NCBI GenBank assembly: GCA_964620475.1 | Contig: CAZUJN010000001.1 | Span: forward strand, 4,651 to 68,650 | Direction: 5' to 3' | Length of the DNA: 64,000 nucleotides | From: an uncultured Candidatus Saccharibacteria bacterium | GTDB taxonomy: Bacteria; Patescibacteriota; Minisyncoccia; Phycocordibacterales; CAIZLB01 | Part shown: in pieces, positions 3,537 to 52,633 of the stretch | How positions within the stretch are numbered: the stretch's first letter is position 1 | How the letters are laid out: each line of letters begins with the position of its first letter | Translations under genes and position numbers: made by a program | Notes under the pieces: model-generated | Databases searched by the model: none | What the model saw: only the letters and a program-made list of their open reading frames with translations | Told to the model about the DNA's origin: nothing

Positions 3537-3595
3537 GAATAAATATTTTACTCATGATATGTAAAATAAATCAGAAGAAATTATAAAAAACAAAA

Positions 3596-3640
3596 ACCCA
3601 TCATTAAGTTATAATGATTAGGGTTTTTGAGGATTGTGAA
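3596..3640 (-). terminator. Probable terminator hairpin downstream of pilin gene
   Basis: Imperfect hairpin ccc-atcatt...aatgat-ggg flanked by T-runs on the minus-strand transcript. Confidence 0.4.
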
Positions 3641-3651
3641 GTTAATTTATA

Positions 3652-4092
3652 CTAAAATCCACAAGTTGATCCACTTATAGCAGAAGATGTTGCCGCAGCA
3701 GCACCTGTTGAATCAACACAGAAGTTAGATTTACCGCCAATAGCATTCTTCAAAACAGCTGAAACAGCCCATGATGATGAAGCGGTAGCATAACAAGTAA
3801 CTGTAGTTTTTGATTGAGCTGATGTAATTAGAGGCTTAAGACCACCTGTACCAGAGTTATTGAATATACCCGCTGAACACGCTGTGGCTGTAGCACCATA
3901 ATCATTGTTCAATGAATAATATAACTCAGCCTGTGCTCTCATATTTGATAGGGTTGACTGTATAGCCGCATCTTCACCCTTACTTCTTGCTGAAGATAGT
4001 GAGGCTAACACTATACTTGAAAGTATACCGATGATAGCGATCACCACCAATAGCTCGATAAGTGTAAATCCTTTTTTGTAATTTTTCTTCAT
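3652..4092 (-). CDS. Type IV pilin / pseudopilin (prepilin-type N-terminal cleavage-methylation domain)
   Basis: N-terminus MKKNYKKG|FTLIELLVVIAIIGIL is the canonical class III signal (G-1, F+1, E+5) followed by hydrophobic helix; 146 aa, C-terminal Cys pair. Confidence 0.9.
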   Translation of the reverse strand: MKKNYKKGFTLIELLVVIAIIGILSSIVLASLSSARSKGEDAAIQSTLSNMRAQAELYYSLNNDYGATATACSAGIFNNSGTGGLKPLITSAQSKTTVTCYATASSSWAVSAVLKNAIGGKSNFCVDSTGAAAATSSAISGSTCGF

Positions 4093-8740: not shown

Positions 8741-11700
8741 TTATGTCAACTCTAAAGCAAGCCTTGACATCTTTTCATAACCTTCAGGTGCCATATTATA
8801 AACAAAATTTTCAACCTTTATACCTCCTCTTATATTTTGTCCAGCTGAAAATATTTTATATTTTCTCTTAAAATCTTCAAAAGATATTAGTTGTCCATTA
8901 TCATAAGCCACTTCTGCAAAATCTCTAAATGCCTTTATGGCATCACCGCCATTTTGTAGTATCCAATATTCTACACCTATACCACCAAGTCCACCTTGTT
9001 GACCATTTTCTCCTAAGCCTTTTTTATAGCACCCAGCTTCTTTAAGTTTTTTCTTAGCAAATCTTATATTTGTAAGCACATCTAACAGTTTTTCTCTGCC
9101 ATAAATCCTCTCTATCGAGTTATACTTTTCATGAAGACCACTATGAGCATCGAAGGTTGCAGAGTCAGATTTTTTGACGAAACCTATATCTACCGTCATC
9201 TTATGACCATCCATCTCTAATTCTTTAGATCTAAACATTCTCATGCCCTTATTTTCATAAGAATCATTCTTTTCAAATATTGATTCGATGCCAATTATAA
9301 GATTATTCACCTTACTCCAATCCTTATCATCTAATTTAACAGCAAAATCAAAGTCAAACTTTTCATCCAAAGCCGAACCTCTTCCTGTTGATCCTGTATC
9401 GGTTATAATAGCCCCAAGTAAACTATCATCATATTCTCCTTTATGGAATAAAATATTATTTTCCTCTAGTAATGATTTTATCTTATCTATTAACTTATCT
9501 TTGACTCTGGTAATAGACTCTATATTTCCTTCAGTTTGTTTAGATTCTAATATTTTTTCATGTTTTTTCCATTCATCAGATAAAGATATAACTTCTTTTG
9601 ACTTACGTGTTCCGGCAAAAGTTTTCTTATATCTATTAAAATCATCCAAGGTGAATGTAACTTTACCTTCTGCATTACATATTGGTATATAAAAACCTTT
9701 TTGAGCTATGAAATATTTTACATTTTCAAACCCCTCACCATCTATACATATAGCATCTATATTAGTGGAGCCGAAACCTGTTCTTATTCCATAATGTTTA
9801 TTATTAATAACTCCGGTTTTAAATATATCTAATTCATCTTTTTTAAATTGTTCTTTCTGCTTTAATATCAAATACATATCACCATAACCCGTAAAACCCT
9901 CTTTCAATGCTTCACTTTCAAATATAGATAAATCAGTATCAAAAGGGGTTGAATCACTAGATTTTGCAGTTGATTTTGCATTATCGGTTTCAGCACCAAT
10001 GAACTCAGGAGAATAAACACCTTTATCCAGATAAGTATCTATAAAATTAGAAGAGATACCTTTAATCATATCACCCTGTTTTATTTTTATAACACCTTGA
10101 CTTGAATTTAATATATTTCTTTGATGAGCATTTTGCTTATATTCATCCATCTTTTGCAAAGCTTGTTCAACTGAACCTATATCAACCCTTCTTAAAAAAG
10201 CCTGTTCAAACCTAGAAATAATATCTGAGCCTTCTTTTACACCAAAGGCTTGAGATATGGATTCCAATTCTGACTTTAGAGTGTTATCGGACAAATTATC
10301 TTCTATCTCTAAACTATATCTACCTATATGGCCAGATAATACATTAATTTTCTTTATGAAAAATTTAATCTTTTGTCTTTCTTCATCCGAAACAGATTCA
10401 CCTGATTGAAAGCGTGATATAACAGACCTATTTTCAGATAAAAATTGTAAATATGAATACAGGTTTTCATCGCAACTGGCTATATGTGATCTTAATAAAT
10501 CTTTAAATATAATCAATCTTCTCTTTGAATTATCTTTAACGTTTTTCAAAGATTCAACCTTTGATCTATTCACACCAAAGTCTAATTCTTTATCACCATA
10601 CATCAATTCAAAAACTTTATACTGTTTACCCACAAGAGGTATATTGTTAGACAGAAATATTTGTTCTATACCACCCAAAACCTTCTTTGCTTCTTCGATA
10701 TTTTTATATTTAGCTAGCATTGGTATTATCTGATCAGATAAATTTTTCAATTCAGCCGACTGTGATTCAGTCATAATCTTAAATAAATCAATATATCTTT
10801 GCTGTTCAGGAGTGAATGAAAAATCTTTCGAGTTTAAAAGATCTAGAGGACAAGACTGTATTGCTGAATTAAATAGATTATTCAAATCTTCTTCATCAAA
10901 AACATCAGAATATTTATTTCTTATAAAATATATATTAATCACACACCGTAAAGGTTCTTTTACGATTATAATATTTAAGGCCGATCTCTTTTGTTGTTTA
11001 TCTAAAGTAAATTCATATTCTTCTGTGAGGATATTTGGGTAACAATTTAAAACATTATTAAACATAATATTTTCTTCATCTTTAGAAAGTACTATACCTT
11101 TTTCAGATAAAACCTTAGAAACATAATTAAAATTTATGAATGAATTATTTATTATATTATAATTATTATTCATAATACCTTTTTTGATATCACCAATATC
11201 AAAAGTTTCTAAACCCCTAGATGTATTATTTCCAAAAGCTTTATTGGACAAGGTAATCAAGTCAATATCTTTATCTGAATTAACCCAATCAGAATAATCC
11301 TTGATTTTTTGTAAATAATCTTCAGAAGAACCCATTACTCTAATATTTTCATGTATATCTAATCTATTAATAATATCAATAAACCACTTATAATCATTCC
11401 CAAAACTTTTATATACAGTTTTAGATATTGACCTTATCTCATTGAAATTTATATAGATTTTATCTTTAAAACCTTTGAATATATCTATAAATATATTGAA
11501 CTCTGTTTCGCTCAAAGTGTTCAATTCATCAAGATAATATTCGAGATTTTTGTAGCCTAAACCCTCTAAAGAGTCTATCTTATAGATTAAATCATGATTA
11601 AATTTATCGATTTTCTTCAATTCATACGAATTAGTCATTCTAATATAACCCTTTTTGACTAGATAAATTAATAAATCTATTTTATTACCATCTAATGTAT

Positions 11701-12751
11701 TAAATGTTTCAAATACCTTATCATAAGAAAGATTATTGAGTGAATAATTTTTATTTACGAACTCTTCTTTTATTAAATCCTGCAAACGTATATCATAATT
11801 TGATATTTTATTCACAAATAAAATAAAATCATTAATTTTTACTTCTCTAATATTCTTAAAAAAGACTTGCGCTTTGATCAGATTCTCTTCATTTATAATT
11901 TTTACCAAATCTTTTAAATAGTAAAAATCATTGTTCTCGAACTTAAATTTTATATATTTATTATTTATTAATATTTTCAATTGTTCTGATGATATATCGT
12001 CTAGATTGTATAGACTAAATTCATTCATTTCTCTATATACACCAGATTTATCAATAATCCTTATTTTTTCAATAGTATTTTCATCCACTCTATCAAAATT
12101 AAAAGTATGACGTATATCAATTTTCATCAGACATTCTAGAGAGATATTATTTTTTTTATTAAAAGAGTAAATTTGATTAGTTTTTTTTATTAAATCTTCT
12201 ACACTATAAAAATATTTTAATTCCCTTTGTTTGGAAGAAACCATCTTTAACAATTTCGCACCCTCATCATTTAACGGAAACTCAGCAAAATGTACCCCCC
12301 ACAAGTTATGAGATACCTTTTTCTTCTCAAACTCAGCTCTTAAATCTTCTTTGTTTTCTATATCCAAATTATCCAATATAAACTCAATTGTCTTAACCTT
12401 TTTTCTGTTTTCACCAAATCTATCACTATATGATTCAATAGTACTATTTATTCCTTTAGCTACACCCTCTAAAACCCTCTCTCCAAGTTTTTTTAACCTA
12501 TCTTTAAAATTCAGAGTATCTTTTTTTATAAGATCAAATTCACGCTCATACCCTCTTTTCTCTTCTTCGGATAGGTTTTCATCATTCAACAATGACTCGA
12601 TCTTCTGATTTGTTCCCTCTATATCATCAATAGTATTTTCCAAACCTATCACTGACTCATGTAGACGATTATTTATCACATCAGAAGCTACCTCTTTTTC
12701 GGTATCATTTATTCCTGTCTCATTTTTAATTATATCTCTTTCATCCTTCAT
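8741..12751 (-). CDS. Giant (1336 aa) mostly low-complexity K/E/N/I-rich protein with C-terminal polymerase-beta-superfamily nucleotidyltransferase domain
   Basis: C-terminal region has hG[GS]...D.D motif (IITDTGSTGRGSALDEKFDFDFAV) and downstream third-Asp strand (KMTVDIGFV), followed by a helical domain (GGLGGIGVEYWILQNGGD). Confidence 0.6.
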   Translation of the reverse strand: MKDERDIIKNETGINDTEKEVASDVINNRLHESVIGLENTIDDIEGTNQKIESLLNDENLSEEEKRGYEREFDLIKKDTLNFKDRLKKLGERVLEGVAKGINSTIESYSDRFGENRKKVKTIEFILDNLDIENKEDLRAEFEKKKVSHNLWGVHFAEFPLNDEGAKLLKMVSSKQRELKYFYSVEDLIKKTNQIYSFNKKNNISLECLMKIDIRHTFNFDRVDENTIEKIRIIDKSGVYREMNEFSLYNLDDISSEQLKILINNKYIKFKFENNDFYYLKDLVKIINEENLIKAQVFFKNIREVKINDFILFVNKISNYDIRLQDLIKEEFVNKNYSLNNLSYDKVFETFNTLDGNKIDLLIYLVKKGYIRMTNSYELKKIDKFNHDLIYKIDSLEGLGYKNLEYYLDELNTLSETEFNIFIDIFKGFKDKIYINFNEIRSISKTVYKSFGNDYKWFIDIINRLDIHENIRVMGSSEDYLQKIKDYSDWVNSDKDIDLITLSNKAFGNNTSRGLETFDIGDIKKGIMNNNYNIINNSFINFNYVSKVLSEKGIVLSKDEENIMFNNVLNCYPNILTEEYEFTLDKQQKRSALNIIIVKEPLRCVINIYFIRNKYSDVFDEEDLNNLFNSAIQSCPLDLLNSKDFSFTPEQQRYIDLFKIMTESQSAELKNLSDQIIPMLAKYKNIEEAKKVLGGIEQIFLSNNIPLVGKQYKVFELMYGDKELDFGVNRSKVESLKNVKDNSKRRLIIFKDLLRSHIASCDENLYSYLQFLSENRSVISRFQSGESVSDEERQKIKFFIKKINVLSGHIGRYSLEIEDNLSDNTLKSELESISQAFGVKEGSDIISRFEQAFLRRVDIGSVEQALQKMDEYKQNAHQRNILNSSQGVIKIKQGDMIKGISSNFIDTYLDKGVYSPEFIGAETDNAKSTAKSSDSTPFDTDLSIFESEALKEGFTGYGDMYLILKQKEQFKKDELDIFKTGVINNKHYGIRTGFGSTNIDAICIDGEGFENVKYFIAQKGFYIPICNAEGKVTFTLDDFNRYKKTFAGTRKSKEVISLSDEWKKHEKILESKQTEGNIESITRVKDKLIDKIKSLLEENNILFHKGEYDDSLLGAIITDTGSTGRGSALDEKFDFDFAVKLDDKDWSKVNNLIIGIESIFEKNDSYENKGMRMFRSKELEMDGHKMTVDIGFVKKSDSATFDAHSGLHEKYNSIERIYGREKLLDVLTNIRFAKKKLKEAGCYKKGLGENGQQGGLGGIGVEYWILQNGGDAIKAFRDFAEVAYDNGQLISFEDFKRKYKIFSAGQNIRGGIKVENFVYNMAPEGYEKMSRLALELT

Positions 12752-13745: not shown

Positions 13746-14378
13746 ATGACAAATATAATAGAATCATTAAATTGGAGATATGCCACAAAAGCATATGATT
13801 CAAGTAAAAAATTAACACAAGAACAAATTAACAATTTATTGGAAGTGATAAGACTATCCCCTTCCTCATATGGATTACAGCCATATAAAGTAATACACGT
13901 TAAAACTCCAGAGATTAGAGAAAAGCTAAAAGCTGCATCTTGGGGACAAACACAGATAACAGATGCTTCTGATTTGTTTGTATTTGCAGTACCCACAAAT
14001 CTAAATGATAAAGATGTTGATGATTTTATAAATCTTGTTGCTACAGTTCGTGGAGCACAAGCTGAACAATTAAAAGGTTATGCAGATATGATAAAAGGTT
14101 CTATAAACGGAAGAGATGACGCTGGTAGAGTTTCTTGGGCAGCAAAACAAGCATATATAGCACTAGGTTTATTATTGGAAGCTGCTGCTTTAGAAAAAAT
14201 AGATGCTACCCCTATGGAAGGCTTTGATAATGCACAATACAATGAGATATTAGGTTTAAATGAACAAAACCTAACATCTGTAGTAGTCGCAGCGGTTGGT
14301 TATAGATCAGAGACAGATGAATATATAAATCTAAAAAAAGTCAGAAAAGATATAAAAGACTTGGTTATAGAGAAATAG
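13746..14378 (+). CDS. Nitroreductase-family NAD(P)H flavin oxidoreductase
   Basis: N-terminus ESLNWRYATKAYD...SSYGLQPYKVIHV typical of the nitroreductase fold; divergent from the HxlR regulator (classic pairing). Confidence 0.85.
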   Translation: MTNIIESLNWRYATKAYDSSKKLTQEQINNLLEVIRLSPSSYGLQPYKVIHVKTPEIREKLKAASWGQTQITDASDLFVFAVPTNLNDKDVDDFINLVATVRGAQAEQLKGYADMIKGSINGRDDAGRVSWAAKQAYIALGLLLEAAALEKIDATPMEGFDNAQYNEILGLNEQNLTSVVVAAVGYRSETDEYINLKKVRKDIKDLVIEK

Positions 14379-16320: not shown

Positions 16321-16512
16321 ATGGAATTATTTGGACTAGGAGTACCTGAAATCACTTTAATATTAGTAGTCTTTCTGGTTTTTTTTGGAAAAGACAAACT
16401 TCCTGAACTTGCAAGGAGTATAGGAACATCTTTCAAAGAACTTAAGAAAGGTTTTAGTACAGAAGCTGACTCAAAAGAAAAGACTGATGACAATACAAAA
16501 AAATCAAAATAG
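16321..16512 (+). CDS. tatA: Sec-independent (twin-arginine) translocase protein TatA/E
   Basis: MELFGLGVPEITLILVVFLVFFGKDKLPELARSIGTSFKELKKG is the TatA signature. Confidence 0.9.
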   Translation: MELFGLGVPEITLILVVFLVFFGKDKLPELARSIGTSFKELKKGFSTEADSKEKTDDNTKKSK

Positions 16513-17221
16513 TGATTTGAGTATATTGGAGCATATTATAGAACTTAGGAATAGAATAATTCTATGCGTGCTAGTTATTATTATTGGTTCAGCTATCGCT
16601 CATTTTTTTCATGAACAAATTATTAGTTTTATTTTAAAACCTATCGATGGGCAAAAACTTGTATTCCTTTCCCCTCTTGATCCTTTATTTTTTATTTTGA
16701 AAATTGATTTAGTAGTTGGAATTTTAATATCATTACCTATTATAGTTTGGTCTGTATTTTCATATATAAAACCGATTATAACAAATAAGCTCAACTATTT
16801 GATACATGTTATATATTTATCATCAACCTTATTAGTTTTGACGGCTCTTGGTTATGCATATTTTATAATAGTACCGCTTATATTAAAGTTTTTATCATCA
16901 ATCACAATCCCTGGAATAGAAAGTGCTATTACAGCTCAAAACTATCTTAGTTTTTTTATTACACAAATACTCATAATCACACTTGTATTTCAAATTCCTT
17001 TATTTATTATTCTTGGAATTTATATAGGAGTTTTTAATACAAGATTATTGGGCTCAAAACGAGGTTATATATATGTTGGTATGACTATAGTACTTTCAAT
17101 ACTAACACCGACACCAGACATATTTAGTCTTGGTATTATTCTAATTCCCGCTTTATTTATATTTGAAATAAGTTTAATTATAGGTAGAATTGTAGAGAAA
17201 TTTAAGAAGAAGAAAATTTAG
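16487..17221 (+). CDS. tatC: Twin-arginine translocase subunit TatC
   Basis: 244 aa, six TM helices, LEHIIELRNR start typical of TatC; overlaps tatA end. Confidence 0.85.
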   Translation: MTIQKNQNSDLSILEHIIELRNRIILCVLVIIIGSAIAHFFHEQIISFILKPIDGQKLVFLSPLDPLFFILKIDLVVGILISLPIIVWSVFSYIKPIITNKLNYLIHVIYLSSTLLVLTALGYAYFIIVPLILKFLSSITIPGIESAITAQNYLSFFITQILIITLVFQIPLFIILGIYIGVFNTRLLGSKRGYIYVGMTIVLSILTPTPDIFSLGIILIPALFIFEISLIIGRIVEKFKKKKI

Positions 17222-20602: not shown

Positions 20603-20998
20603 ATGTATAAAAAAATAATCATCACGATATTATCAATCGCAGTAATAATAGGATTAATATTATTTATAAATAAAAACAATCAAAACAAACAACCAGATAT
20701 AACAGAGGTTCCAAGTAGAAACGATACGGCTCTCATACCAGAATCAGAAGCTTCAACAACAAAAAGTTATACATTGGCTGAAGTTGGTGCGCATAATACA
20801 TCAACTGATTGTTGGATGGTTATAGAGGGTAAAGTTATAGACGCAACGGGTTTTATAGCATCAGGACAACACCCAAACAACAAGATAGTAAACGGTTGTG
20901 GTAAAGACGCAACAGAGATGTTCAACAATGTTAAAAAACACAGCGGACCACAAGCTAAAGAAATAATGATGAGATCACAAATAGGTGTGCTAGAATAA
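20603..20998 (+). CDS. Membrane-anchored cytochrome b5-like heme-binding protein
   Basis: N-terminal TM helix; b5 core YTLAEVGAHNTSTDCWMVIEGKVIDATGFI..QHP...GKDATEMFNNVKKHS with both His ligands. Confidence 0.7.
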   Translation: MYKKIIITILSIAVIIGLILFINKNNQNKQPDITEVPSRNDTALIPESEASTTKSYTLAEVGAHNTSTDCWMVIEGKVIDATGFIASGQHPNNKIVNGCGKDATEMFNNVKKHSGPQAKEIMMRSQIGVLE

Positions 20999-21002
20999 TC
21001 TC

Positions 21003-22175
21003 ATGGAAAATTTATTTTATGAAATAGGACAAACCTGCGGAATGATAGGTTTTGTTCTTCTGACATTATTAATATTCTCAGGTGATACAGCTCGTTTTTG
21101 GAATAGATATATAGGATTAGATAAGATTATAAAATTTCAAAGAAAATTCTCTTATTTTGTAATGTTCTTTGTCTTTTTTCATCCAATATTCTTTATGTTG
21201 TCAACCGGAACATACAAAGGTTTTATAGTTCCTGACTTTGCATATCTGCCACTTGCTATAGGTATTATTGCTTTCTATATATTAGTAGGTGTAATGATAG
21301 CATCTGCATTATATAAACGTATCTCATATAGAGTTTGGCAATATATACATGTCGTAACTTATATATTATTCTTCTTTGCATTATTCCATGCGGTACTTTG
21401 GGGATCAGAAACTGCCGAAAATATGCCTATATACATATTGGCCACATTACTTGTGACAGTAGGTATTGTATATAGAACAAGATATAAAATTATAGCAGCT
21501 AGAACAACAAGGTTTTTTGTGAAAGATGTAAAAATGGAAACAGCCGACACTTTCACTGTTACCATTAAAGGTAATAAGGAATTTCAGGCCGGACAATTTT
21601 GTTTTCTAAGACTTAATAAAAACAAACTTTATGCAAGACATCCTTTTACCATATCCTCTGCTCCAGGTGATGATTTTGCATTTACTATCAAGCTCGCTGG
21701 AAGATTTACACAAACAGCTAAAGAATTAAAAGAAGGTGATGAAATATTTATAGACGGACCTTTTGGAAAATTCATACCACAGCCTAACAAAAATCTAGTA
21801 TTTATAGCTGGTGGGGTTGGTATAACACCTTTTATGAGTATACTTCGTGATCATATAAAAAGAGGTGTGTCACAAAACATAACTTTGATATATGGATCGA
21901 GATCACAAGCGGATATCATTTTCAAAGATGAAATAGAATCGATCAATCAGCCTTGGTTTAAAAAAGTTTACATGTTAAATGATATAAGTAATATGACAAT
22001 ACAATGTGAACAAGGTTATATATCACAAGATATAATCAAAAAATATGTAACTAATCCAAATGATTCACTATACTATATATGTGGCCCAGAAAGAATGAAA
22101 GATACAGCTAAAAAAGTTTTAAAAGACATGGGTGTTAAGTGGAGAAATGTTTTCGTCGAGGATTTCTTCTGGTAG
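21003..22175 (+). CDS. NOX/ferric-reductase-family flavocytochrome (6-TM bis-heme ferric reductase domain + FAD-binding HPFT motif + NAD(P)H-binding domain)
   Basis: 390 aa; paired His 13 residues apart in TM helices (HVVTYILFFFALFH); HPFTISS FAD motif; GGVGITPF NAD(P)-binding motif. Confidence 0.75.
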   Translation: MENLFYEIGQTCGMIGFVLLTLLIFSGDTARFWNRYIGLDKIIKFQRKFSYFVMFFVFFHPIFFMLSTGTYKGFIVPDFAYLPLAIGIIAFYILVGVMIASALYKRISYRVWQYIHVVTYILFFFALFHAVLWGSETAENMPIYILATLLVTVGIVYRTRYKIIAARTTRFFVKDVKMETADTFTVTIKGNKEFQAGQFCFLRLNKNKLYARHPFTISSAPGDDFAFTIKLAGRFTQTAKELKEGDEIFIDGPFGKFIPQPNKNLVFIAGGVGITPFMSILRDHIKRGVSQNITLIYGSRSQADIIFKDEIESINQPWFKKVYMLNDISNMTIQCEQGYISQDIIKKYVTNPNDSLYYICGPERMKDTAKKVLKDMGVKWRNVFVEDFFW

Positions 22176-22183
22176 AATGAATG

Positions 22184-22274
22184 GCGGAAAAGTGCTAGAG
22201 AGGTTGAATAGGTCGCTCTCGAAAAGCGATATGGAGGAAACTCCATCGAGGGTTCGAATCCCTCCTTTTCCGCT
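22184..22274 (+). tRNA. tRNA-Ser (anticodon CGA) with long variable arm
   Basis: GCGGAAA acceptor / D-arm GTGCTAGAGAGG / anticodon stem-loop TCGCT-CTCGAAA-AGCGA / variable arm TATGGAGGAAACTCCATC / T-arm GAGGGTTCGAATCCCTC / TTTCCGC. Confidence 0.8.
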
Positions 22275-22475: not shown

Positions 22476-22910
22476 ATGTTAACAACAATAATATTATTAT
22501 CATTATTAGGCTCAGTTATAGCATCAGCAATAGGTACGTTTTGGTATTCACCTATTACACCTATGGGCAAATGGCATATGTCTTATATAGGTTTTGACAA
22601 ACTTTCAAAAGAAGAGCAAGAGAAAAAAATAAAAGAAGTTAAACCACATATGTGGAAAAGTTATCTTGGTCAATTTATACTTTCTTTCTTTACATCCATG
22701 TTTATAATTTTCGTTACATTACAAACATACAAAGCTGCATATGTATTTGTAACAATGATATGGATTGCATTTATAATTCCAAATATAGGTTCAGCATTGA
22801 TTTGGGGAAAATGTGACAAAAAATTGGTTTGGAAAAAATTCTTTTCTGACTCATTAAATAACTTAGTGACATATTTATTGATTGTGTTCATGACCACATT
22901 GTTTATGTAA
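22476..22910 (+). CDS. Hypothetical integral membrane protein (4 TM helices)
   Basis: 144 aa, hydrophobic segments; no motif recognised. Confidence 0.4.
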   Translation: MLTTIILLSLLGSVIASAIGTFWYSPITPMGKWHMSYIGFDKLSKEEQEKKIKEVKPHMWKSYLGQFILSFFTSMFIIFVTLQTYKAAYVFVTMIWIAFIIPNIGSALIWGKCDKKLVWKKFFSDSLNNLVTYLLIVFMTTLFM

Positions 22911-22917
22911 AATAAAA

Positions 22918-22953
22918 AGGACCGCCTCCCCTATGATGGGGTGGCGGTTTTTT
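22918..22953. terminator. GC-rich bidirectional terminator (accgcctcccc-tatga-tggggtggcggt + T7)
   Basis: Strong hairpin with T-run; overlaps the stop of the convergent minus-strand gene. Confidence 0.65.
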
Positions 22954-23503
22954 TCTTGCCGTATCGAGGAACAAGATTGCCGACTTGTGTTGAGATAAAA
23001 TTTTCAGTAACTTCATCATGTTTGGCTAATTGAAATTCCATCTTAACTCCAAGAGTAAGAACTTTAGGAAAGAAATACACGCGAGCTCTTCCACGCAAAA
23101 TCGCAGATTGATTGTCGAACTCAGGTATCTCCCTAAGTCGACTCATGATTTCTTTTACAGAAGATTTGTTTATACCCTGTATCTTATGCATGGCGGTCTC
23201 CGACAATATAGCCAACTGCCACAGACTATGAAAACCTGCAGACTGAAGAGTTTTGTTAACCCGTGAAGGGAAATTAAACCACAACAAAGAATCGAACAAA
23301 TGATCATCCAGAGTGGACAGACTCATTGCCTTGTCCAAGGTTGTACGCTTACCTTTTTTGGTTACACTGAATTCAACCTTGGCATCGCCGGTAGCGTCAG
23401 TCTTTATCCTTTTGATAGCAAGCTCATATCCAGGATTTAGATCTCCGGCAAGATAAACCGCGATCAGATTATTAAACACATGGTTTGGAATTGTTCTTTT
23501 CAT
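22931..23503 (-). CDS. Hypothetical protein, compositionally atypical (higher GC); possible helix-hairpin-helix DNA-binding segment; start uncertain (ORF-track start 23572, likelier Met at ~23503)
   Basis: LSETAMHKIQGINKSSVKEIMSRL resembles an HhH motif; no confident family assignment. Confidence 0.35.
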   Translation of the reverse strand: MKRTIPNHVFNNLIAVYLAGDLNPGYELAIKRIKTDATGDAKVEFSVTKKGKRTTLDKAMSLSTLDDHLFDSLLWFNFPSRVNKTLQSAGFHSLWQLAILSETAMHKIQGINKSSVKEIMSRLREIPEFDNQSAILRGRARVYFFPKVLTLGVKMEFQLAKHDEVTENFISTQVGNLVPRYGKKKTATPS

Positions 23504-23558
23504 ATAAGGGTGTGAATGTGCTACACATAAAAATACCACACCCTCACACAAAATCAAC

Positions 23559-24725
23559 CTACACCTTAACACTCATAGCCACTTTCTTCATCACCCTTTT
23601 ATCAAAAGGTTTTGGTATAACGTAGTCTGCTTTTAATTCTTTTTTATTTATCAAACTTGCCAATGCATAAGCTGCCTTTATTTTCATATCATCAGTTATA
23701 CTTTTTACACCAGCATCAAGTGCGCCACGAAATATTCCAGGAAATACAAGCACGTTATTAATCTGATTTGGATAATCAGATCTACCTGTGGCAAATATTT
23801 TTATGTCTGCTTTTTTTGCATTTTCAAAACTTATTTCTGGATTTGGATTAGCCATAGCAAATACTATTCTATTTTCATTCATGGTTTTAACCCATTCTAC
23901 TTTCAAGACATCAGCCTTTGACACACCTATAAACACATCAGCGTTCTTCAAAGCATTTTCTAATCCTCCTTTTATATTTTCTTTATTTGTTATTTCAGCT
24001 AATTCTAATTTATATTTATTTAAATCAGTTCTATCTTTATTCAAAGTATCCACAGAATCTAAGACAATCATCTTATTTGGATTCACTCCAGCTTTTATTA
24101 AAAGTTTTGCTATAGCTAATGCTGCCGCCCCTGCCCCGTTTATAACTATTTTTATATTTTTCAAATCTTTCTTAACCAACTTGAGCGAGTTTATAAGCCC
24201 AGCTAAAACTACTATAGCTGTTCCATGCTGATCATCATGAAATACTGGTATATCGAGTTCTTTCTTTAATCTCTCTTCTATCTCAAAACATCTTGGAGCA
24301 GATATATCTTCTAGATTTATACCACCGAAGACCGGAGCTATGTTTTTTATAGTTTTAATTATTTCTTCTGTATCTTGTGTATTTAAACATATTGGAAATG
24401 CATCTATGTTTGCAAAATTTTTAAACAAAACAGCTTTACCTTCCATAACCGGTATAGCAGCTTCTGGACCAATATTTCCAAGTCCGAGCACCGCTGAACC
24501 GTCCGAGATCACCGCAACAGTGTTAGCTTTTATGGTATGAGTATATACAGACTTTTTATCTTGATGTATAAGACGACATACTTCTGCAACACCTGGAGTA
24601 TATGCTACCGATAAATCTTCTTTGTTTTTAGTCTTTACTTTTGAGACAACCTCAAGTTTACCTTTATGTTTTTTGTGTAGACCTAGGGATAATTTTTTGT
24701 AGTTTTTTGAAGATTTTGTGGGCAT
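23559..24725 (-). CDS. NAD(P)-dependent malic enzyme (short form)
   Basis: LSVAYTPGVAEVC, dinucleotide-binding VINGAGAAALAIAKLL, 388 aa. Confidence 0.85.
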   Translation of the reverse strand: MPTKSSKNYKKLSLGLHKKHKGKLEVVSKVKTKNKEDLSVAYTPGVAEVCRLIHQDKKSVYTHTIKANTVAVISDGSAVLGLGNIGPEAAIPVMEGKAVLFKNFANIDAFPICLNTQDTEEIIKTIKNIAPVFGGINLEDISAPRCFEIEERLKKELDIPVFHDDQHGTAIVVLAGLINSLKLVKKDLKNIKIVINGAGAAALAIAKLLIKAGVNPNKMIVLDSVDTLNKDRTDLNKYKLELAEITNKENIKGGLENALKNADVFIGVSKADVLKVEWVKTMNENRIVFAMANPNPEISFENAKKADIKIFATGRSDYPNQINNVLVFPGIFRGALDAGVKSITDDMKIKAAYALASLINKKELKADYVIPKPFDKRVMKKVAMSVKV

Positions 24726-27805: not shown

Positions 27806-27881
27806 TGGTGCAAGCACTAGGATTCGAACCTAGGACCGGTCGTGTATAAGACGACTGCTCTACCAACTGAGCTATGCTTGC
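27806..27881 (-). tRNA. tRNA with anticodon UAU as read (tRNA-Ile2-type), CCA encoded
   Basis: Reverse complement GCAAGCATAGCTCAGTTGGTAGAGCA-GTCGT-CTTATAC-ACGAC-CGGTC-CTAGGTTCGAATCCTAG-TGCTTGCACCA; 76 nt. Confidence 0.65.
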
Positions 27882-30238: not shown

Positions 30239-31357
30239 ATGGCTATAATACAGAACAAAAAGGCTTATCATAACTATGAAATACTTGAAAAGATAGAGAC
30301 AGGTATGATTCTTTTAGGTTTTGAAGTTAAGGCTATAAGATCAGGTCAAATGACATTAGATGGTTCATACATAAAGATAGGTAAACATGACAGAGTTTTT
30401 TTGATAGGTGCCAATATAAAACCATTACAACAAGAAAATATTCCTGATTCATATTCGGAAACAAGAGATAGAGAATTACTGTTGACAAAAAAAGAAATAA
30501 AGCACCTAAAACAAAAGACTGAGACAATTGGTAATACTTTGATACCAATTTCCGTATATAATAAAGAGGGTTTGATAAAACTCGAGATAGCTCTCGCTCG
30601 TGGTAAGAAAAAACATGATAAAAGAGAAAGTATTAAAAAAAGAGAGGCCAACATAGAAATAAACAGAATGTTACATCACAAATCAAAATTCATATTTTTA
30701 CTATTAATATCAAGCCTGTTTGGTCTTTCAAACACAGTTGATGCAAAAGTATTATTAAAAGTTCCTTATTATCAACAACAATACACAAACAGTTGTGAAG
30801 CCGCTGCTACAAAAATGGTATTAGAATATCATGGTATTTATCTAGATGAAGATGAGATATTAAAATCTTTCAACTATAATCCCAGACAAAAAGATACAAC
30901 AAATAATGTATGGGATGATCCAAATGAAATGTTTGTTGGTTTTGTTGATAAAAAAGGACCAGAAAATGGATATGGTGTTTATGGCCCGGCGGTGGTTAAA
31001 GGTATAAAAAAGTTTGAGGTAGATGCAACACATCATGCAAGCTCAAGTATAAACCTGAAACTTATTGCACAAAGTATAAAAGATGATAAACCAGTTATAT
31101 TCTGGGGTTATACTTCCCTAACACAAAAACCATACACATGGAAAACAGAATCCGGTAAAACCATTAAGGCTTTTAGAGGTGAGCATGCACGTGTGGTGGT
31201 TGGTTTTGAAGGTACAGTAAATAACCCAACAGGATTTTATGTACATGACCCCATAAACGGTAAGAAAAACGAGTATTGGTCTAAAAATAAACTATTAACA
31301 AACCTGACTGCGGTACCAGATGTTACTGATCAATTGGTTATAATAGATTCAGATTAA
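30239..31357 (+). CDS. smpB: SsrA-binding protein SmpB (aa 1-~145) continuing in-frame, with no stop, into a signal-peptide/TM segment plus C39-like cysteine peptidase (Peptidase_C39_2/YvpB-like) domain; either a fusion or two genes (second start at ATG ~30665)
   Basis: N-terminus IIQNKKAYHNYEILEKIETGMILLGFEVKAIRSG is canonical SmpB; downstream MLHHKSKFIFLLLISSLFGLSNTVDA looks like a signal peptide; YYQQQYTNSCEAAATKMVLEYHG is a C39-like catalytic Cys motif. Confidence 0.75.
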   Translation: MAIIQNKKAYHNYEILEKIETGMILLGFEVKAIRSGQMTLDGSYIKIGKHDRVFLIGANIKPLQQENIPDSYSETRDRELLLTKKEIKHLKQKTETIGNTLIPISVYNKEGLIKLEIALARGKKKHDKRESIKKREANIEINRMLHHKSKFIFLLLISSLFGLSNTVDAKVLLKVPYYQQQYTNSCEAAATKMVLEYHGIYLDEDEILKSFNYNPRQKDTTNNVWDDPNEMFVGFVDKKGPENGYGVYGPAVVKGIKKFEVDATHHASSSINLKLIAQSIKDDKPVIFWGYTSLTQKPYTWKTESGKTIKAFRGEHARVVVGFEGTVNNPTGFYVHDPINGKKNEYWSKNKLLTNLTAVPDVTDQLVIIDSD

Positions 31358-31404: not shown

Positions 31405-31791
31405 GGGGATGACCGGATTCGATATATAGAACTTTGACATGTATGCGTAATAGAGTATTCTCAAATCTCTTAAAACTTTGAGGAACCTTAAGTGCACAAG
31501 CACAAAAAGCTGTTGTATCGCCTTTCGCGTTCAACATGTCTTTCGCAACTGCTAGAGCATAACCTCTAGTCGCGCATCTTACTTTTATCTACTTTGTGTA
31601 AAAGATAGGGTGTAATATAGCAAAGTTGGATTAAGGTAGTAATCTTGATCCTTAATCGAGATAAAAGATTATATTATATGATGTTTCGATATATATTTTG
31701 AGTCATATAATGAATTTTAAAAATATATCTATATTACGTAGAGTTACATGTTTAAACTATATAGACGTGGGTTCGACTCCCACCATCTCCA
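31405..31791 (+). ncRNA. ssrA: tmRNA (ssrA), ~387 nt, immediately downstream of smpB
   Basis: 5' end GGGGATGACCGGATTCGA (cf. GGGGcTGAttctGGATTCGAC) and 3' tRNA-like end GTGGGTTCGACTCCCACCATCTCCACA pairing with the 5' GGGGATG to form the acceptor stem; candidate tag frame ...AFNMSFATARA-stop ending at 31562. Confidence 0.75.
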
Positions 31792-31796
31792 CATCA

Positions 31797-31832: not shown

Positions 31833-34800
31833 TTATTTTTCTTTTACATCTGGATTAACACGACAGATTATCGAGGTTGTTATCGGAGAAGGAACCAAAT
31901 TTGTTCCAGAACATTTTAATGTATACTTCTGATTTGTTGTTAAACCTGAAACAGTTTTACTTCCACCGCTGGCACCATCAGTAAGTGTTATTGGATAAAC
32001 AGTTGAATCACCTCCGCCAATATTTATATTCCAACCACTAAGATTACATGATGATCCTGAAGGGATGTTTGATATATCCCATGATATTGTACAGTTACCA
32101 TTTTTATTTAATGAAACTTTAGGGTCTTTAGATAGATTAATAACAGGAGGATTAACAACTGTATTATTACACTGAGGTGAAGTGTCCCCTGGCTGACAAC
32201 CTGTTACTGTTGTTGGAGTATATGAACATGTTTTAGAAACAATTTTTCCATCATATAAATCCTTAAGTTCAACAGTCATTGAATCACTTGTTGTTGGTAA
32301 TGCTTTTGTATATACATATGAACCATCTTTGTTTGTGGTTGCAACAAGTGTACCATCTTTCCTGTATTCAACATTACCCAACGTTGTTTTTCTGTCTGGT
32401 GTAAATGTATATGTTAGATTTGTATCACTTGAAGACATAACACAATATGCATTAAAAGCACAAGCAGGATCATTTGTAACTTTATTTACCTGAACACCAT
32501 TTTCTTTATAGACCATATCTCTACCTACACAAGAATTAGTTTTAGTCACCGTTGGGGGTGTACAGGTTGTTCCATCAAAATATCCCATCCAATCACCTGT
32601 TGGGTCTGAACATGTACCAATTGGTTTACATGTTTTACCTGCATCCATAAGATTCTTAAAGAAAGGTGCTATATTTCTGTATTTACCACCATCACTACCA
32701 CTAGGTATATTATATCGAGCTGCTGTAGGTGTGTAAGTACTATCATATCCATCTGAATCAATTTTTGACTGAAACTCAATCTGATAAGGTGAAATACCTT
32801 CCCCATCTAATTTGTACACACTCCAATCACTATTATTAGAAACAGTTGTGGGTTTAACAAGCTCAGGATCATAACAGGTTGCCTCATCAGTCAAACCAGC
32901 TTCTATTATCTTATAAGTTGATGTCCAGCTTTTAGTATCATCACCTCTATTATCTAATCTAAATGTTATAGTACAATTACCATCATATTTCATACCAGGA
33001 ACGTTTTCTTTTTTACCGCCATATCTATAAAGGTTTTTAGAAGCATATTCAGGTGTTAAACCACTTATATCACCATATATTCTATTATCCGGCTGACCAA
33101 ACATAAATCTAAATATTGGATATCTAATCATCTTCCATGAACCAAGTTGTTCAGCTACAACATAAAATCTTTTATTTTCTGTTATAGATGGTCTAGTATC
33201 AGATGTATAGCCAAGATATTTACATATATTTATACTTTTATCATGCCAAGCAGCCCTGTCTGTACCATCTATATTATAAAGAGGAGAAAAAACCTTAGAA
33301 CCAGCTATAAAAGTATTCCTAAGCTCTCCATCAGTACAAAAACTTCTGTCTAAGATAGAATCAACATTACTCTCAAAAACATCTCTTGTTGTAGCAACAG
33401 AACGACACACATCAGAAGACATCTTTCCAGCTTCTACTATTTTTAGATAAACTCTATCATAATCAGTGTCATCTCCTTGATATTTTGTATAAACAGTAAC
33501 ATTACATCCCCCATTATATGTCGCATAATTAACATTTCTCTTTCTTCCACCCGGGTCAAAAGTTATTGTTTTAGATTCATTTTTAACAAATCTATATATA
33601 TGAAATCTCTTATATGTCCAACCAGATCTACCAGAATCAGATATAACATAAAACGGTGATCCGTTGTCTATGGTACCAGCTATTGTTGAACATATATTTA
33701 TACTTGCACTTATAGGCCCACCTGTACTACCTGTACCAGGAGCAGTTATATCAACGACTTCACCAGAAGAAAAATATTTTTTTGCTCTAACATCTTCAAC
33801 AGTACAAGCGTCTCTCAAGAATCTATTACATGCCCATTTCTTAACAAACCACTCATTTGTAGCCGAATCTTCTATACACTCATTGGTTGGTTTAGTGCCA
33901 CACACCTCAACATCAGTAAGAGCTTTAACAGAATGAGCTCCAACAAAAGCAACCGAGGACATCAATAATATCATTAACATCATCAATGATTTTTGTTTTT
34001 TCTTTTTAAAAACCATAAACACTATTATTAGTAATAATATCAATACGGACAGGATCATATAATATATTTTATTTGAATTTACATGTGTAATGTTAACAGT
34101 TTTTGTTTTTGTTAAAATAATACTTCCGTCTTTATCAAGTATATCAACCTTTACCAAGACTTCACCGACCATATTTTTCAACACCTCAACTCTTTCATTC
34201 ACATTTATTGTACCTTCTTTATAAAAAGTTTTATCTATTTCCTTTTTAAAAATCTCTTTTTCATATTGAGAAACAGAAATAACAACTTTATTATTTTCTT
34301 CTTTTTCTAATTTTGATTCATATCCAATATTTGCATAAACATCTAAATCCTCAACCAATATTTGTGTATCAGTAAAATTATAAGCTGAATTAGATAATAT
34401 AAATTTATAATCAACAGATATCTTTGGATAATTAGTTGATGTTATTTTTAATCTATATTCTCCACCATTTATATTCAAAGGCACCTTAATATTCAACACG
34501 TTTTTGGTGAAAGAAACCGCTTTAAAAAAGTTTTTATTTTTTTCTAGATATTTATCAAACTCATCTGGTTGTTTTTGAGGATTTGGGGCCTTTGTCTTAG
34601 GACTAGATGCTGACCAAACGGTGTTATTTTGGACATCAAACACTTCTATATTCAACTCTGGCTCAACCACTTCATAATCAACCCCATCCTGAGCTATTAA
34701 TTTTACAAAAAGATTTGACCCTTTTATTAAATTTAATTTTTCATTAAAAGTAGTAAAGGAATCAGAACTTATTTCCATGTTATCAGTAGAGTACACAACA

Positions 34801-34877
34801 GACTCTTCTGCTTTAATGATTTTATTACCAATAAAAAAACTTAACAATAAAATCAAAAATAAAATATTTTTTTTCAT
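31833..34877 (-). CDS. Large (1014 aa) secreted/surface protein: signal peptide, ~240-aa domain, TM/second signal-like segment (~aa 275-320), then long Cys-rich Thr/Asn/Gly-rich extracellular region
   Basis: MKKNILFLILLLSFFIGNKIIKA signal; hydrophobic YYMILSVLILLLIIVFMVF-KKKKQKS-LMMLMILLMSSVAFVGAHS; many Cys in C-terminal 700 aa. Confidence 0.5.
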   Translation of the reverse strand: MKKNILFLILLLSFFIGNKIIKAEESVVYSTDNMEISSDSFTTFNEKLNLIKGSNLFVKLIAQDGVDYEVVEPELNIEVFDVQNNTVWSASSPKTKAPNPQKQPDEFDKYLEKNKNFFKAVSFTKNVLNIKVPLNINGGEYRLKITSTNYPKISVDYKFILSNSAYNFTDTQILVEDLDVYANIGYESKLEKEENNKVVISVSQYEKEIFKKEIDKTFYKEGTINVNERVEVLKNMVGEVLVKVDILDKDGSIILTKTKTVNITHVNSNKIYYMILSVLILLLIIVFMVFKKKKQKSLMMLMILLMSSVAFVGAHSVKALTDVEVCGTKPTNECIEDSATNEWFVKKWACNRFLRDACTVEDVRAKKYFSSGEVVDITAPGTGSTGGPISASINICSTIAGTIDNGSPFYVISDSGRSGWTYKRFHIYRFVKNESKTITFDPGGRKRNVNYATYNGGCNVTVYTKYQGDDTDYDRVYLKIVEAGKMSSDVCRSVATTRDVFESNVDSILDRSFCTDGELRNTFIAGSKVFSPLYNIDGTDRAAWHDKSINICKYLGYTSDTRPSITENKRFYVVAEQLGSWKMIRYPIFRFMFGQPDNRIYGDISGLTPEYASKNLYRYGGKKENVPGMKYDGNCTITFRLDNRGDDTKSWTSTYKIIEAGLTDEATCYDPELVKPTTVSNNSDWSVYKLDGEGISPYQIEFQSKIDSDGYDSTYTPTAARYNIPSGSDGGKYRNIAPFFKNLMDAGKTCKPIGTCSDPTGDWMGYFDGTTCTPPTVTKTNSCVGRDMVYKENGVQVNKVTNDPACAFNAYCVMSSSDTNLTYTFTPDRKTTLGNVEYRKDGTLVATTNKDGSYVYTKALPTTSDSMTVELKDLYDGKIVSKTCSYTPTTVTGCQPGDTSPQCNNTVVNPPVINLSKDPKVSLNKNGNCTISWDISNIPSGSSCNLSGWNINIGGGDSTVYPITLTDGASGGSKTVSGLTTNQKYTLKCSGTNLVPSPITTSIICRVNPDVKEK

Positions 34878-48816: not shown

Positions 48817-50130
48817 TTAGATTTCGTATTTCCACAAACTTAAAGAGTTTTTATCTTGAAACAATAAGTATTTGTTTGTATTTGATATTTTAATTTTATA
48901 TATATCTATGGAATTACTTACCATGTCTTGTAATGGAATTATTAATTTAAACTCACCGTTTACTGGATTTATTGACCAGATATTATCTGTAAATTCTATA
49001 TTATTTTTATACCAAGCCTCTGGGTAAGGTGCTTGATATAGTTTTTGTGGTATACCACAGAAAATAAGTTTAGAGTCGTTTGACCAAACACATTTATCTA
49101 CTATTGTTGCCTGTGATAAATATGTGTTTGTTTTTGATTTTATATCATAAATAAACGTTTCCAATGTGTTATTTATTATTTCATTATATATAACCTTTTT
49201 ACCATCAGGAGATACTAATGTATTAAATCCATACTTCTCACCTATTATATAAGTGTTTTTACCTTTACCATCAGGGTTTAAAAAGAATAAATACCCAGGA
49301 AAATAAGCACTTGGTTTTGTTGTTAAAGCTATTGTTGTTTTGTTTACATATTGAGATAACCACTCTGATAATACAGTATTTAATACATTTGTTCTTACTC
49401 CACCATCAAAACTAGATAATACACCTGTACCGGTATTATTTATAAAATAAAACAACCTTTTTGTTTCTTTTGATAAAGATAAGTTTGATGAACTTATATT
49501 AATATTACCCACATTTGCATTATATAAAGTTGAGGTTGCTGTATCTTTTATTAGTTTTAAATATGTTGTTGATATTGTCTCGTTGTCATCAGAAACCTTT
49601 CTGATTATTGCTGATATATTGTCTATAAACAAAACTTCTTCTGCCCCTATGAGTGTGAAGTAGGATAGCTTGTTTAAATCTGTTGTAGAGGCCAAATTTT
49701 CGTAAATATTACCTGTTTTCCTATCCCATAAGTATATGAATTCTTGATTCTTATAAATTTTTTTGTTTTTTATAGCCTGAATTACACTTGTTGTGGAATT
49801 ATTTGTGGAGGTAGCGACTTCTTCTATATCTTTATAAACAAAATCAAAACCACTAACAGGTTCTTTCCATATTTGTACTAATTTAGTTTTTGTTGTGTTA
49901 GTTGTTGGATTTTCTACAGATTTTTCATCACCTTCTTGTACATCATTTGACTGTGTTGATGTTGAGACTCTGGTTTGAAAAGGTGTTCTTGTTGGGTTTG
50001 TGTTTGTAACAGTGTTGTAATCAGATAAGTCACCTTGTGACACTTTATAGAATTTATATCCAAAATAAACTCCAAGACCAAATATGATTATAATTAATAT
50101 TATTATTGTTTTTTTGATTATATTTTGCAT
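48817..50130 (-). CDS. Membrane-anchored (N-terminal TM) beta-propeller-like protein (TolB-like PDGK repeats); last gene of the T4SS-like locus
   Basis: 437 aa; N-terminal TM IIILIIIIFGLGVYFGY; repeated ...PDGKxxxY... motifs. Confidence 0.4.
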   Translation of the reverse strand: MQNIIKKTIIILIIIIFGLGVYFGYKFYKVSQGDLSDYNTVTNTNPTRTPFQTRVSTSTQSNDVQEGDEKSVENPTTNTTKTKLVQIWKEPVSGFDFVYKDIEEVATSTNNSTTSVIQAIKNKKIYKNQEFIYLWDRKTGNIYENLASTTDLNKLSYFTLIGAEEVLFIDNISAIIRKVSDDNETISTTYLKLIKDTATSTLYNANVGNINISSSNLSLSKETKRLFYFINNTGTGVLSSFDGGVRTNVLNTVLSEWLSQYVNKTTIALTTKPSAYFPGYLFFLNPDGKGKNTYIIGEKYGFNTLVSPDGKKVIYNEIINNTLETFIYDIKSKTNTYLSQATIVDKCVWSNDSKLIFCGIPQKLYQAPYPEAWYKNNIEFTDNIWSINPVNGEFKLIIPLQDMVSNSIDIYKIKISNTNKYLLFQDKNSLSLWKYEI

Positions 50131-50147
50131 TTTATGTTTTTATTATA

Positions 50148-51341: not shown

Positions 51342-51342
51342 A
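50641..51342. repeat. Copy 1 of ~702-bp direct repeat (identical 5' gene module)
   Basis: Identical translations in two frames (main ORF and shadow ORFs 50821..51108 / 52109..52396) imply nucleotide identity. Confidence 0.85.
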
Positions 51343-51378
51343 TCTAGATTATATCAAATTATTATGAGAGTTTGTATT

Positions 51379-52629: not shown

Positions 52630-52630
52630 A
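51929..52630. repeat. Copy 2 of ~702-bp direct repeat
   Basis: See copy 1; 586-bp unique spacer between copies. Confidence 0.85.
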
Positions 52631-52633
52631 TTC

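Follow-up and report, generated by a model that had tools for sequence, protein, structure and literature searches.

We investigated two adjacent genes in the window, by which we mean the whole stretch of 64,000 nucleotides analyzed here (uncultured Candidatus Saccharibacteria bacterium, assembly GCA_964620475.1, contig CAZUJN010000001.1, positions 4,651 to 68,650). The first gene encodes a membrane-anchored cytochrome b5 and the second a flavocytochrome of 390 amino acids (aa), in which a ferric-reductase domain (FRD) is followed by an FNR-type dehydrogenase; both open reading frames (ORFs) are on the same strand with a gap of 4 bp (Table 1), as an earlier sequence-only reading of the window had described. 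The domain-level observation is real and far beyond chance. The 390-aa protein matched the Pfam families Ferric_reduct (PF01794; E = 6.4e-12, 46.0 bits against a cut-off of 28, residues 12–126), FAD_binding_8 (PF08022; 4.5e-8), PF00970, and NAD_binding_1 (PF00175; 5e-18), with a weaker match to NAD_binding_6 (PF08030; 6.5e-7), and the b5 ORF matched Cyt-b5 (PF00173; E = 4.7e-15, 55.8 bits, cut-off 23.7). All four families that the sequence-only reading had proposed (Ferric_reduct, FAD_binding_8, NAD_binding_6, and Cyt-b5) were matched, and none of the domain searches assigned the larger protein to a non-redox transporter family. NCBIfam gave no match for the b5 and, for the reductase, sub-threshold matches of the dehydrogenase domain alone, with no match to MsrQ.

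We found that SpNOX was the closest solved structure to the reductase by sequence (E = 3e-25, identity 21–24%) and also by fold (Foldseek 1e-22, template-modeling score 0.67–0.74), followed in the latter by DUOX1, NOX5, and NOX2; together with the Pfam matches, this upholds the SpNOX-like domain architecture proposed at the outset. As in SpNOX (PDB 8QT6, 8QQ7), a single chain carries the ferric-reductase membrane domain and then the FAD and NAD(P)H domains, and the two proteins have in common the motifs HPF[ST] and GxGxxP, an aromatic residue at the C-terminus, and outer loops that are short. The FAD motif H[PSA]F[TS][LIMV] was located as HPFTI at residue 213 (HPFT, 213–216) and the NADPH motif as GVGITP at residues 271–276, and both motifs were those given in the sequence-only reading. 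The C-terminal residues F388, F389, and W390 are invariant, and F397 of SpNOX gates hydride transfer (PMC11564096). The dehydrogenase is FNR-like, with PF08022, PF00970, and PF00175 and with matches to NqrF, BenC, and b5 reductase, whereas membership of the FRD superfamily is indicated by PF01794 above its gathering score and by the invariant H60 and H129, the surface-proximal pair equivalent to NOX2 H115/H222. Seen against the FNR family, the conserved Ser-Arg that follows the second Rossmann strand of the window protein (YGSRS) faintly hints at NADPH as the donor.

The predicted structure departed from the earlier description in one respect. The AlphaFold model of the reductase was confident (predicted local distance difference test (pLDDT) score 90.8, predicted template-modeling score 0.80) and contained five long helices (2–28, 39–68, 82–102, 109–133, and 137–168), in agreement with five hydrophobic segments in the hydropathy profile, and not the six transmembrane (TM) helices that had been claimed and that characterize NOX enzymes, SpNOX included. 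Homologues of about 437 aa possess one additional N-terminal helix, which makes the sixth.

The b5 protein begins with MYKK-IIITILSIAVIIGLILF, continues through a low-complexity linker, and ends in the b5 domain. Its single hydrophobic segment (KD19 hydropathy maximum 2.9) is preceded by positive charges, which is the arrangement of a type-II signal-anchor. His90 (in "HP") and His113 (in "HS") align with both axial ligands of classical b5, and the Pfam score above gathering places the protein among classical bis-His b5 proteins; the membrane-anchored b5 with both His ligands of the sequence-only reading is confirmed. Membership of the MAPR-like cytb5M/cytb5MY group, with Tyr ligation, is not indicated, as both His are present and clade-2 b5/b558 proteins were the closest solved structures, the Tyr positions not having been inspected one by one. 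The best PDB match was 1cxy, cytochrome b558 of Ectothiorhodospira vacuolata (5.5e-10). Cys70 and Cys99 align with the two Cys of this periplasmic protein, which we take to form a disulfide in 1CXY, although a literature search found no paper to confirm it. Both Cys are invariant in the alignment of b5 homologues, and His90 is nearly so. The E. vacuolata b558 shares with the window b5 the two Cys positions and the extracytoplasmic location predicted for the latter, but is soluble, whereas the window b5 is tethered to the membrane and its gene is paired with that of a reductase.

Export signals were evident among the b5 homologues. Lipoprotein boxes were present in L028 (LSAC) and P0131 (LSGC), and in the b5 partner of L016 (2159–3976), a cleavable signal peptide precedes a highly acidic, helical stretch of about 500 residues and a C-terminal b5 domain. 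The b5 partners in L044 (4931–5800) and L048 (5164–6168) each carry a TM anchor and two b5 domains joined by low-complexity linkers. Because homologues have a lipobox, signal peptide, or TM anchor, and because the Cys pair is invariant, it is much the more likely that the b5 domain of the window protein faces outward.

One position in the reductase sets it apart from SpNOX, which has four heme histidines. The membrane domain of the window protein contains three: H60, H116, and H129. In an alignment of the reductase with 68 relatives and the SpNOX sequence, H60 and H129 corresponded to the outer-heme residues H83 and H142 of SpNOX and H116 to the inner-heme residue H129, where the SpNOX ligand pairs are H69/H129 and H83/H142 (PMC11564096). 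The position of the fourth ligand (SpNOX H69, NOX2 H101) is occupied by Gln46. H60 and H129 are predicted to be the ligands of the outer heme, and the residues at the inner site are Q46/R47/K48, W112, Q113, and H116. The bis-heme domain with His pairs 13 residues apart, as claimed previously, stands in part: the H116/H129 pair has this spacing, whereas H60 is unpaired, with Gln46 at the aligned position.

Gln46 is a property of a clade and not a sequencing accident, since it is shared by loci over a wide range of identity and replaced by His beyond them. Every full-length locus 43–96% identical to the window protein has Gln at this position, except for one with Asn (L028 is truncated here and uninformative), and every more distant relative has His. 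Among the best 150 cluster representatives at 50% identity, 126 showed the pattern HHHH and about nine QHHH. Gln113 likewise occurs in 100% of the clade and 0% of the four-His relatives, which mostly have Arg there. W112 is kept in the four-His relatives too and does not tell the two inner-site designs apart. Four residues past H60 lies Phe64, present in 93% of clade loci in one comparison and invariant in two others, whereas NOX enzymes have His-119 four positions after the equivalent His (Zhang 2013, PMC3591440).

These residues bear on how the protein should be classified. The filters for bacterial NOX of Hajjar et al. 2017 consist of an FAD motif, an NADPH motif, and two His-X12-14-His motifs at least 20 residues apart (PMC5676040). 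The window protein passes the FAD and NADPH filters but fails the two-bis-histidyl filter, with H116-x12-H129 alone, because Gln46 takes the place of the inner-heme TM3 histidine. This filter was failed by 28 of the 29 clade loci and passed by 35 of the 39 distant relatives, and the assignment to a bis-heme NOX is not supported. Zhang 2013 (PMC3591440) reported that long-form bacterial FRD proteins keep four His, three-His proteins being the short YedZ/STEAP1 forms; as judged from the alignment, the Gln46 clade is an exception to this long-form rule.

The reduced-His pattern resembles that of MsrQ and STEAP1-4, in which the outer heme donates to an external partner or metal (PMC12525009, PMC3591440). 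The spacing R77-R78/H91/W147-x3-H151/H164 of Escherichia coli MsrQ is identical to Q46-R47/H60/W112-x3-H116/H129 of the window protein, and the inner site of MsrQ holds FMN, not heme, with H151 stacking on the flavin (PMC12525009). In the MsrQ/STEAP group, the first canonical TM3 His is replaced by a conserved Arg (Zhang 2013, PMC3591440), which leaves one outer heme together with an inner flavin, whereas the window protein has Gln46 at the replaced position, with Arg47 next to it. MsrQ also lacks a fused dehydrogenase, and STEAP2-4 have an N-terminal F420-type reductase domain in contrast to the C-terminal FNR-type domain of the window protein, which sets the latter apart from both. As Gln46 replaces the TM3 ligand, the inner site is not a canonical bis-His heme, and it may hold a mono-His heme on H116 or a flavin as in MsrQ/STEAP. 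The flavin-to-inner-heme and inner-to-outer-heme edge distances of SpNOX are each about 10 Å (PMC11564096); therefore, some inner cofactor would be needed in the window protein.

We examined the distribution of the reductase and the genes adjoining it. Members of the family occur widely among Patescibacteria and DPANN archaea, the closest genome match (96% identity) being labeled Saccharibacteria and the next Parcubacteria, Nomurabacteria, and Paceibacterota. Archaeal members of the Gln46 clade (L011, L012, L013, L015–L021, L023, and L026; Woesearchaeota, Pacearchaeota, and Nanoarchaeota) and bacterial members (L009, L010, L014, L027, and L029; Patescibacteria) are about equally similar to the window protein (47–55% identity), and values of 51–55% were seen for family members of both domains, which points to transfer between domains (DPANN/CPR, the latter being the Candidate Phyla Radiation). 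The labels of the metagenome-assembled genomes with L024 and L025 (Methanosarcinales) and L028 (Gammaproteobacteria) may reflect mis-binning.

A b5 gene was immediately upstream of the reductase in 9 of the 29 loci of the Gln46 clade (L001–L003, L005–L008, L016, and L028). In 10 others, the same upstream slot was occupied by a TM-anchored cupredoxin (Cupredoxin_1/Copper-bind) of about 135–185 aa, ending in "...EFTADKxGEFIYYCSVPGHRQKGQWGTLKV" (C-x4-H-x4-Q/H), a motif that is probably a type-1 copper site with axial Gln or His. Directly upstream in two clade loci, both of Woesearchaeota, were a Rieske [2Fe-2S] lipoprotein and a membrane protein of the DsbD_2/CcdA type. In a distant four-His clade (27–28% identity), b5 was immediately downstream of the reductase (L034, L036, L037, L044, L048, and L058), and that the two genes are paired in either order speaks for a link in function. 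Some four-His representatives, P0163 (718 aa), P0205 (610 aa), and P0146 (582 aa), are extended at the N-terminus by segments that contain between one and three CxxCH motifs and resemble exported cytochrome c domains in fusion with the FRD-FNR core; among the 150 representatives, such cytochrome c fusions were the only ones found, with no natural b5-FRD or cupredoxin-FRD fusion. These b5, cupredoxin, Rieske, and cytochrome c partners indicate that the FRD-FNR protein has repeatedly been joined to a small external one-electron carrier.

Table 1. Features of the b5/reductase pair in the window and carrier genes in homologous loci (loci prefixed L, with their own coordinates).
Feature	Position	Strand	Basis
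Cytochrome b5 gene, membrane-anchored, 131 aa	20603..20998	+	ORF, Pfam PF00173, best PDB 1cxy
N-terminal signal-anchor helix of b5, about residues 5–22, after MYKK	20615..20668	+	Single hydrophobic segment
b5 heme-binding domain, residues 57–130, with His90, His113, Cys70, and Cys99	20771..20992	+	Pfam envelope
FRD-FNR flavocytochrome gene, 390 aa, NOX-like "long-form" bacterial ferric-reductase-domain protein	21003..22175	+	ORF, Pfam, sequence and fold matches
Transmembrane ferric-reductase domain, residues 1–168, five helices	21003..21506	+	PF01794, model
FAD-binding beta-barrel, about residues 170–257, R-H-P-F-T at 212–216	21510..21773	+	PF08022, PF00970
NAD(P)H-binding Rossmann domain, about residues 263–390, GGVGITP at 270–276	21789..22172	+	PF00175
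Cupredoxin gene directly upstream of reductase	L009:3386-3844; also L010, L012-L015, L017, L019, L021, L029		
Rieske and DsbD_2 genes directly upstream of reductase	L020:2704-3150 and 3135-3911; L011:2659-3105 and 3104-3874		

On these grounds, we consider it reasonably probable that the two window proteins form a relay, which would move electrons from intracellular NAD(P)H to an external acceptor via FAD, a membrane heme, and the external b5. From the domain content and knowledge of the family, NAD(P)H would bind the larger protein at its FNR-type domain in the cytoplasm and reduce FAD, and electrons would cross the ferric-reductase domain to the outer b-heme on H60/H129. This heme, if exposed, could reduce the heme of b5, which would be tethered at the outer face of the membrane by its signal-anchor, through some 30 residues of flexible linker, and would hand single electrons to an external acceptor. 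In SpNOX the outer heme is solvent-exposed, and SpNOX reduces cytochrome c directly (PMC5676040, PMC11564096). Electron transfer from MsrQ to MsrP is a further precedent, as are the MsrQ-like PF01794+PF00175 proteins with FMN-binding partners outside the cytosol (PMC8238504). The dedicated transmembrane electron-transfer module suggested in the sequence-only reading is upheld in this form, and the b5–FRD adjacency in two gene orders strengthens it.

As the terminal acceptor, we favor a metal ion, then a general sink for reducing equivalents, and then O2. A metal ion (Fe3+ or Cu2+), taken up or kept in homeostasis, is a serious candidate, yet one we would stop short of calling probable. Genes near the relatives often appear to have to do with metals or with thiol redox outside the cytoplasm: an HMA-containing P1B ATPase (L013), CsoR (L029), and ArsR with MerT/HMA (L016) were found near clade members, and DsbB with an anchored thioredoxin near L009. 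In one four-His locus (L036:3875-7551), the reductase is followed by b5, a 182-aa ORF with no Pfam match, and the divalent-metal transporter Nramp (1.7e-68); in no other locus was a b5-paired reductase found directly linked to a metal importer.

Several observations speak against the relay or its metal acceptor. The missing inner-heme ligand leaves a gap in the electron path, and about 8 of the 29 clade loci have no adjacent carrier gene. The AlphaFold model of the b5 was poor (pLDDT 56, from an 11-sequence alignment, with a helix at 2–27 at low confidence), and its topology was called from the positive-inside rule and the homologues and not with a dedicated predictor. No metal transporter or regulator lies beside the window locus, the neighbors being an fn3/PG-binding protein, tRNA-Ser, a DUF1761 protein, and malic enzyme. 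Finally, CPR organisms are generally regarded as unable to make heme, which leaves the supply of the cofactor unexplained.

The best of the alternatives, although we regard it as unlikely, is that the pair serves as a redox-balancing outlet through extracellular electron transfer, passing surplus NAD(P)H electrons to any external oxidant, such as a host surface, minerals, quinones, or O2, and so regenerating NAD(P)+ for a fermentative symbiont that lacks a respiratory chain. We scanned 42 window ORFs (all those of at least 110 aa except for seven) and found no respiratory-complex proteins among them; they fit the metabolically minimal genome without respiratory chains that had been surmised, but this fit is no proof. 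Most of the family is found in Patescibacteria and DPANN archaea, which share such a lifestyle, and the tandem or long-spacer b5 proteins of L044, L048, and L016 resemble reach-extending wires. An NAD(P)-linked malic enzyme is encoded 1.4 kb away and adjoins the pair in L001 as well, but this link was seen in that 96%-identical relative alone. Moreover, the neighborhoods of relatives suggest a role in metal homeostasis, not in energy metabolism.

A true bacterial NADPH oxidase, generating superoxide from O2 at the outer heme (for reactive oxygen species (ROS) production or O2 scavenging) with the b5 incidental or regulatory, appears improbable. SpNOX, the closest solved relative, makes superoxide in vitro, the NOX filters accept its FAD and NADPH motifs as well as those of the window protein, and any exposed reduced b-heme is able to autoxidize. 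However, the two-bis-histidyl filter is failed with Gln46 clade-wide, and O2 has been doubted as the physiological acceptor even of SpNOX and its homologues by the authors of those studies (PMC5676040, PMC11564096). The ROS-generating role entertained in the sequence-only reading is the less likely one because the reductase is coupled to a dedicated external one-electron carrier, whose gene is conserved and swapped for cupredoxin or Rieske in relatives, and because Phe64 stands at the NOX-specific His-119 position (PMC3591440).

We also considered heme acquisition, in which the external b5 would capture host or environmental heme and the reductase would reduce the heme iron for transfer or release. 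The b5 is probably surface-tethered, CPR bacteria are generally heme auxotrophs, and Tyr ligation of heme resembles that of hemophores. Tyr-ligated MAPR-like b5 proteins occur in related CPR clusters (Tamarit et al. 2021). However, the ligands of the window b5 are the classical bis-His set, its closest matches are the electron carriers b5/b558, its slot is also filled by cupredoxin or Rieske, neither of which binds heme, and no heme transporter is adjacent, making this very unlikely. Hardly credible in turn is a pairing of b5 reductase with b5 in the cytoplasm, of the kind known from the endoplasmic reticulum of eukaryotes, serving a desaturase, hydroxylase, or P450 with the membrane domain as a mere anchor: the dehydrogenase does match NADH-cytochrome b5 reductases (2eix, 7e-15; 7rom, 2.6e-14), but homologous b5 proteins have lipoprotein or signal peptides and the invariant Cys pair typical of exported proteins, the three heme-type His of the membrane domain are invariant, the alternative partners are extracytoplasmic (cupredoxin, lipoprotein Rieske, and fused cytochrome c with signal peptide), and no desaturase or P450 was present among the scanned window ORFs or the neighbor genes examined in related loci.

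The relay from NAD(P)H to an external carrier can be compared with systems described previously. Tamarit et al. 2021 (bioRxiv 10.1101/2021.11.17.468889) found pFre and b5 colocalized in 185 of 1427 pFre-containing CPR genomes and proposed a CPR-specific membrane complex, the function of which is unknown; therefore, the pairing of b5 with a ferric reductase is itself not new. The window locus is like those clusters in having PF00173 within 10 kb of PF01794 in a CPR genome, here with the 4-bp gap. The clusters center on a Tyr-ligated cytb5MY, a pair of atypical b5-like proteins (A and B), and a two-component system, the set proposed as the ancestral operon, whereas the window has one bis-His b5. 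Among the scanned ORFs, at 13.7–31.4 kb, we found no two-component, cytb5MY, or b5-like A/B genes, the window not having been searched with a b5 profile, and two-component genes were lacking among all 42. The pairing was reported as CPR-specific, but we found it in DPANN archaea too (L016).

The MsrQ-like systems of Meheust et al. 2021 (PMC8238504) also combine PF01794 with a C-terminal PF00175 and have a small redox protein outside the cytosol as their partner; their donor is proposed to be NAD(P)H, and some are tied to iron uptake, sometimes with VIT1. Their partner is an ApbE-flavinylated FMN-binding protein, mostly in Actinobacteria, whereas the partners here are b5, cupredoxin, or Rieske, with no ApbE seen. 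SpNOX, for its part, has no known partner protein, unlike the b5-paired window protein. What appears to be new, as far as sequence comparison can tell, is a clade that lacks the inner-heme TM3 His and fails the NOX definition despite a NOX-like architecture, together with topological evidence for an outward b5, the apparent interchangeability of b5 with cupredoxin or Rieske, and the presence of the module in DPANN archaea.

Going beyond the window locus, we tentatively suggest a broader scheme, which we hold to be doubtful as a whole. The Gln46 clade could be a hybrid not recognized before, namely a NOX-type long-form FRD-FNR protein in which the inner bis-His heme was replaced, as it is in MsrQ and STEAP, by a flavin or a mono-His heme, and which would act as a universal NAD(P)H-driven exporter with interchangeable carriers (b5, cupredoxin, or Rieske). 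It might have been exchanged between CPR and DPANN, perhaps as their sole membrane redox chain, for the reduction of metals from the host or the environment or the disposal of reducing power. The prevailing view of CPR bacteria and DPANN archaea is that of fermentative symbionts lacking electron-transport chains. If true, an NAD(P)H-to-outside relay would provide them with surface redox chemistry, which could serve metal acquisition, redox balancing, or host interaction. A long-form enzyme without an inner bis-His heme would contradict the generalization on four histidines of Zhang 2013, and the Gln46 enzyme would be a natural test of electron passage through the membrane with one heme. The exchange of partners among b5, cupredoxin, Rieske, and cytochrome c is relevant, too, to what the physiological acceptor of SpNOX-type bacterial NOX homologues may be.

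In the immediate neighborhood, a tRNA-Ser(CGA) gene (window 22186–22273, +) begins 11 bp past the reductase stop on the same strand, with no terminator-like site between them. A DUF1761 membrane protein (144 aa, 1.7e-13; 22476–22910, +) is encoded about 300 bp downstream of the reductase, and its homologue occupies the equivalent place in L001 and lies about 1 kb upstream of b5 in L008, where the reductase is 61% identical; this protein may be a third component. A 213-aa ORF (22931–23572, −) had the RNA polymerase alpha C-terminal domain as its sole significant match (6.4e-6) and lacks the N-terminal alpha domain. Genes for a nitroreductase-family protein (13746–14378, +), TatC (16487–17221, +), and the NAD(P)-dependent malic enzyme (23559–24725, −) lie within 7 kb of the pair. 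A functional link of the pair to the fn3/PG-binding protein, the malic enzyme, or the RNA polymerase alpha C-terminal domain-like ORF was considered and dropped, as each is kept only in the 96%-identical L001 or nowhere. A scan of 19.2–22.6 kb found fewer promoter-like sites than in shuffled controls and no terminator after the operon, and was uninformative in both respects. The composition profile gave a GC content of about 31% over the two genes, equal to that of the window (31.6%), and this lack of an anomaly gives no sign of recent transfer.

Across the window, the scanned ORFs encode housekeeping proteins, type IV pilus components, a class II ribonucleotide reductase, TatC, the nitroreductase, and malic enzyme, a content consistent with a Patescibacteria genome. 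We additionally observed an SmpB with a C-terminal Peptidase_C39-like fusion (372 aa; 30239–31357, +) immediately upstream of the tmRNA gene (31405–31792, +), and a tRNA-Ile with a genomically encoded TAT anticodon (27806–27881, −; ARAGORN). Two very large ORFs, of 1336 aa (8741–12751, −) and 1014 aa (31833–34877, −), had no Pfam match at 1e-5, as was also the case for a run of four ORFs of 333–437 aa (48817–53635, −) that adjoins a TraG/VirB4-like ATPase (54014–55837).

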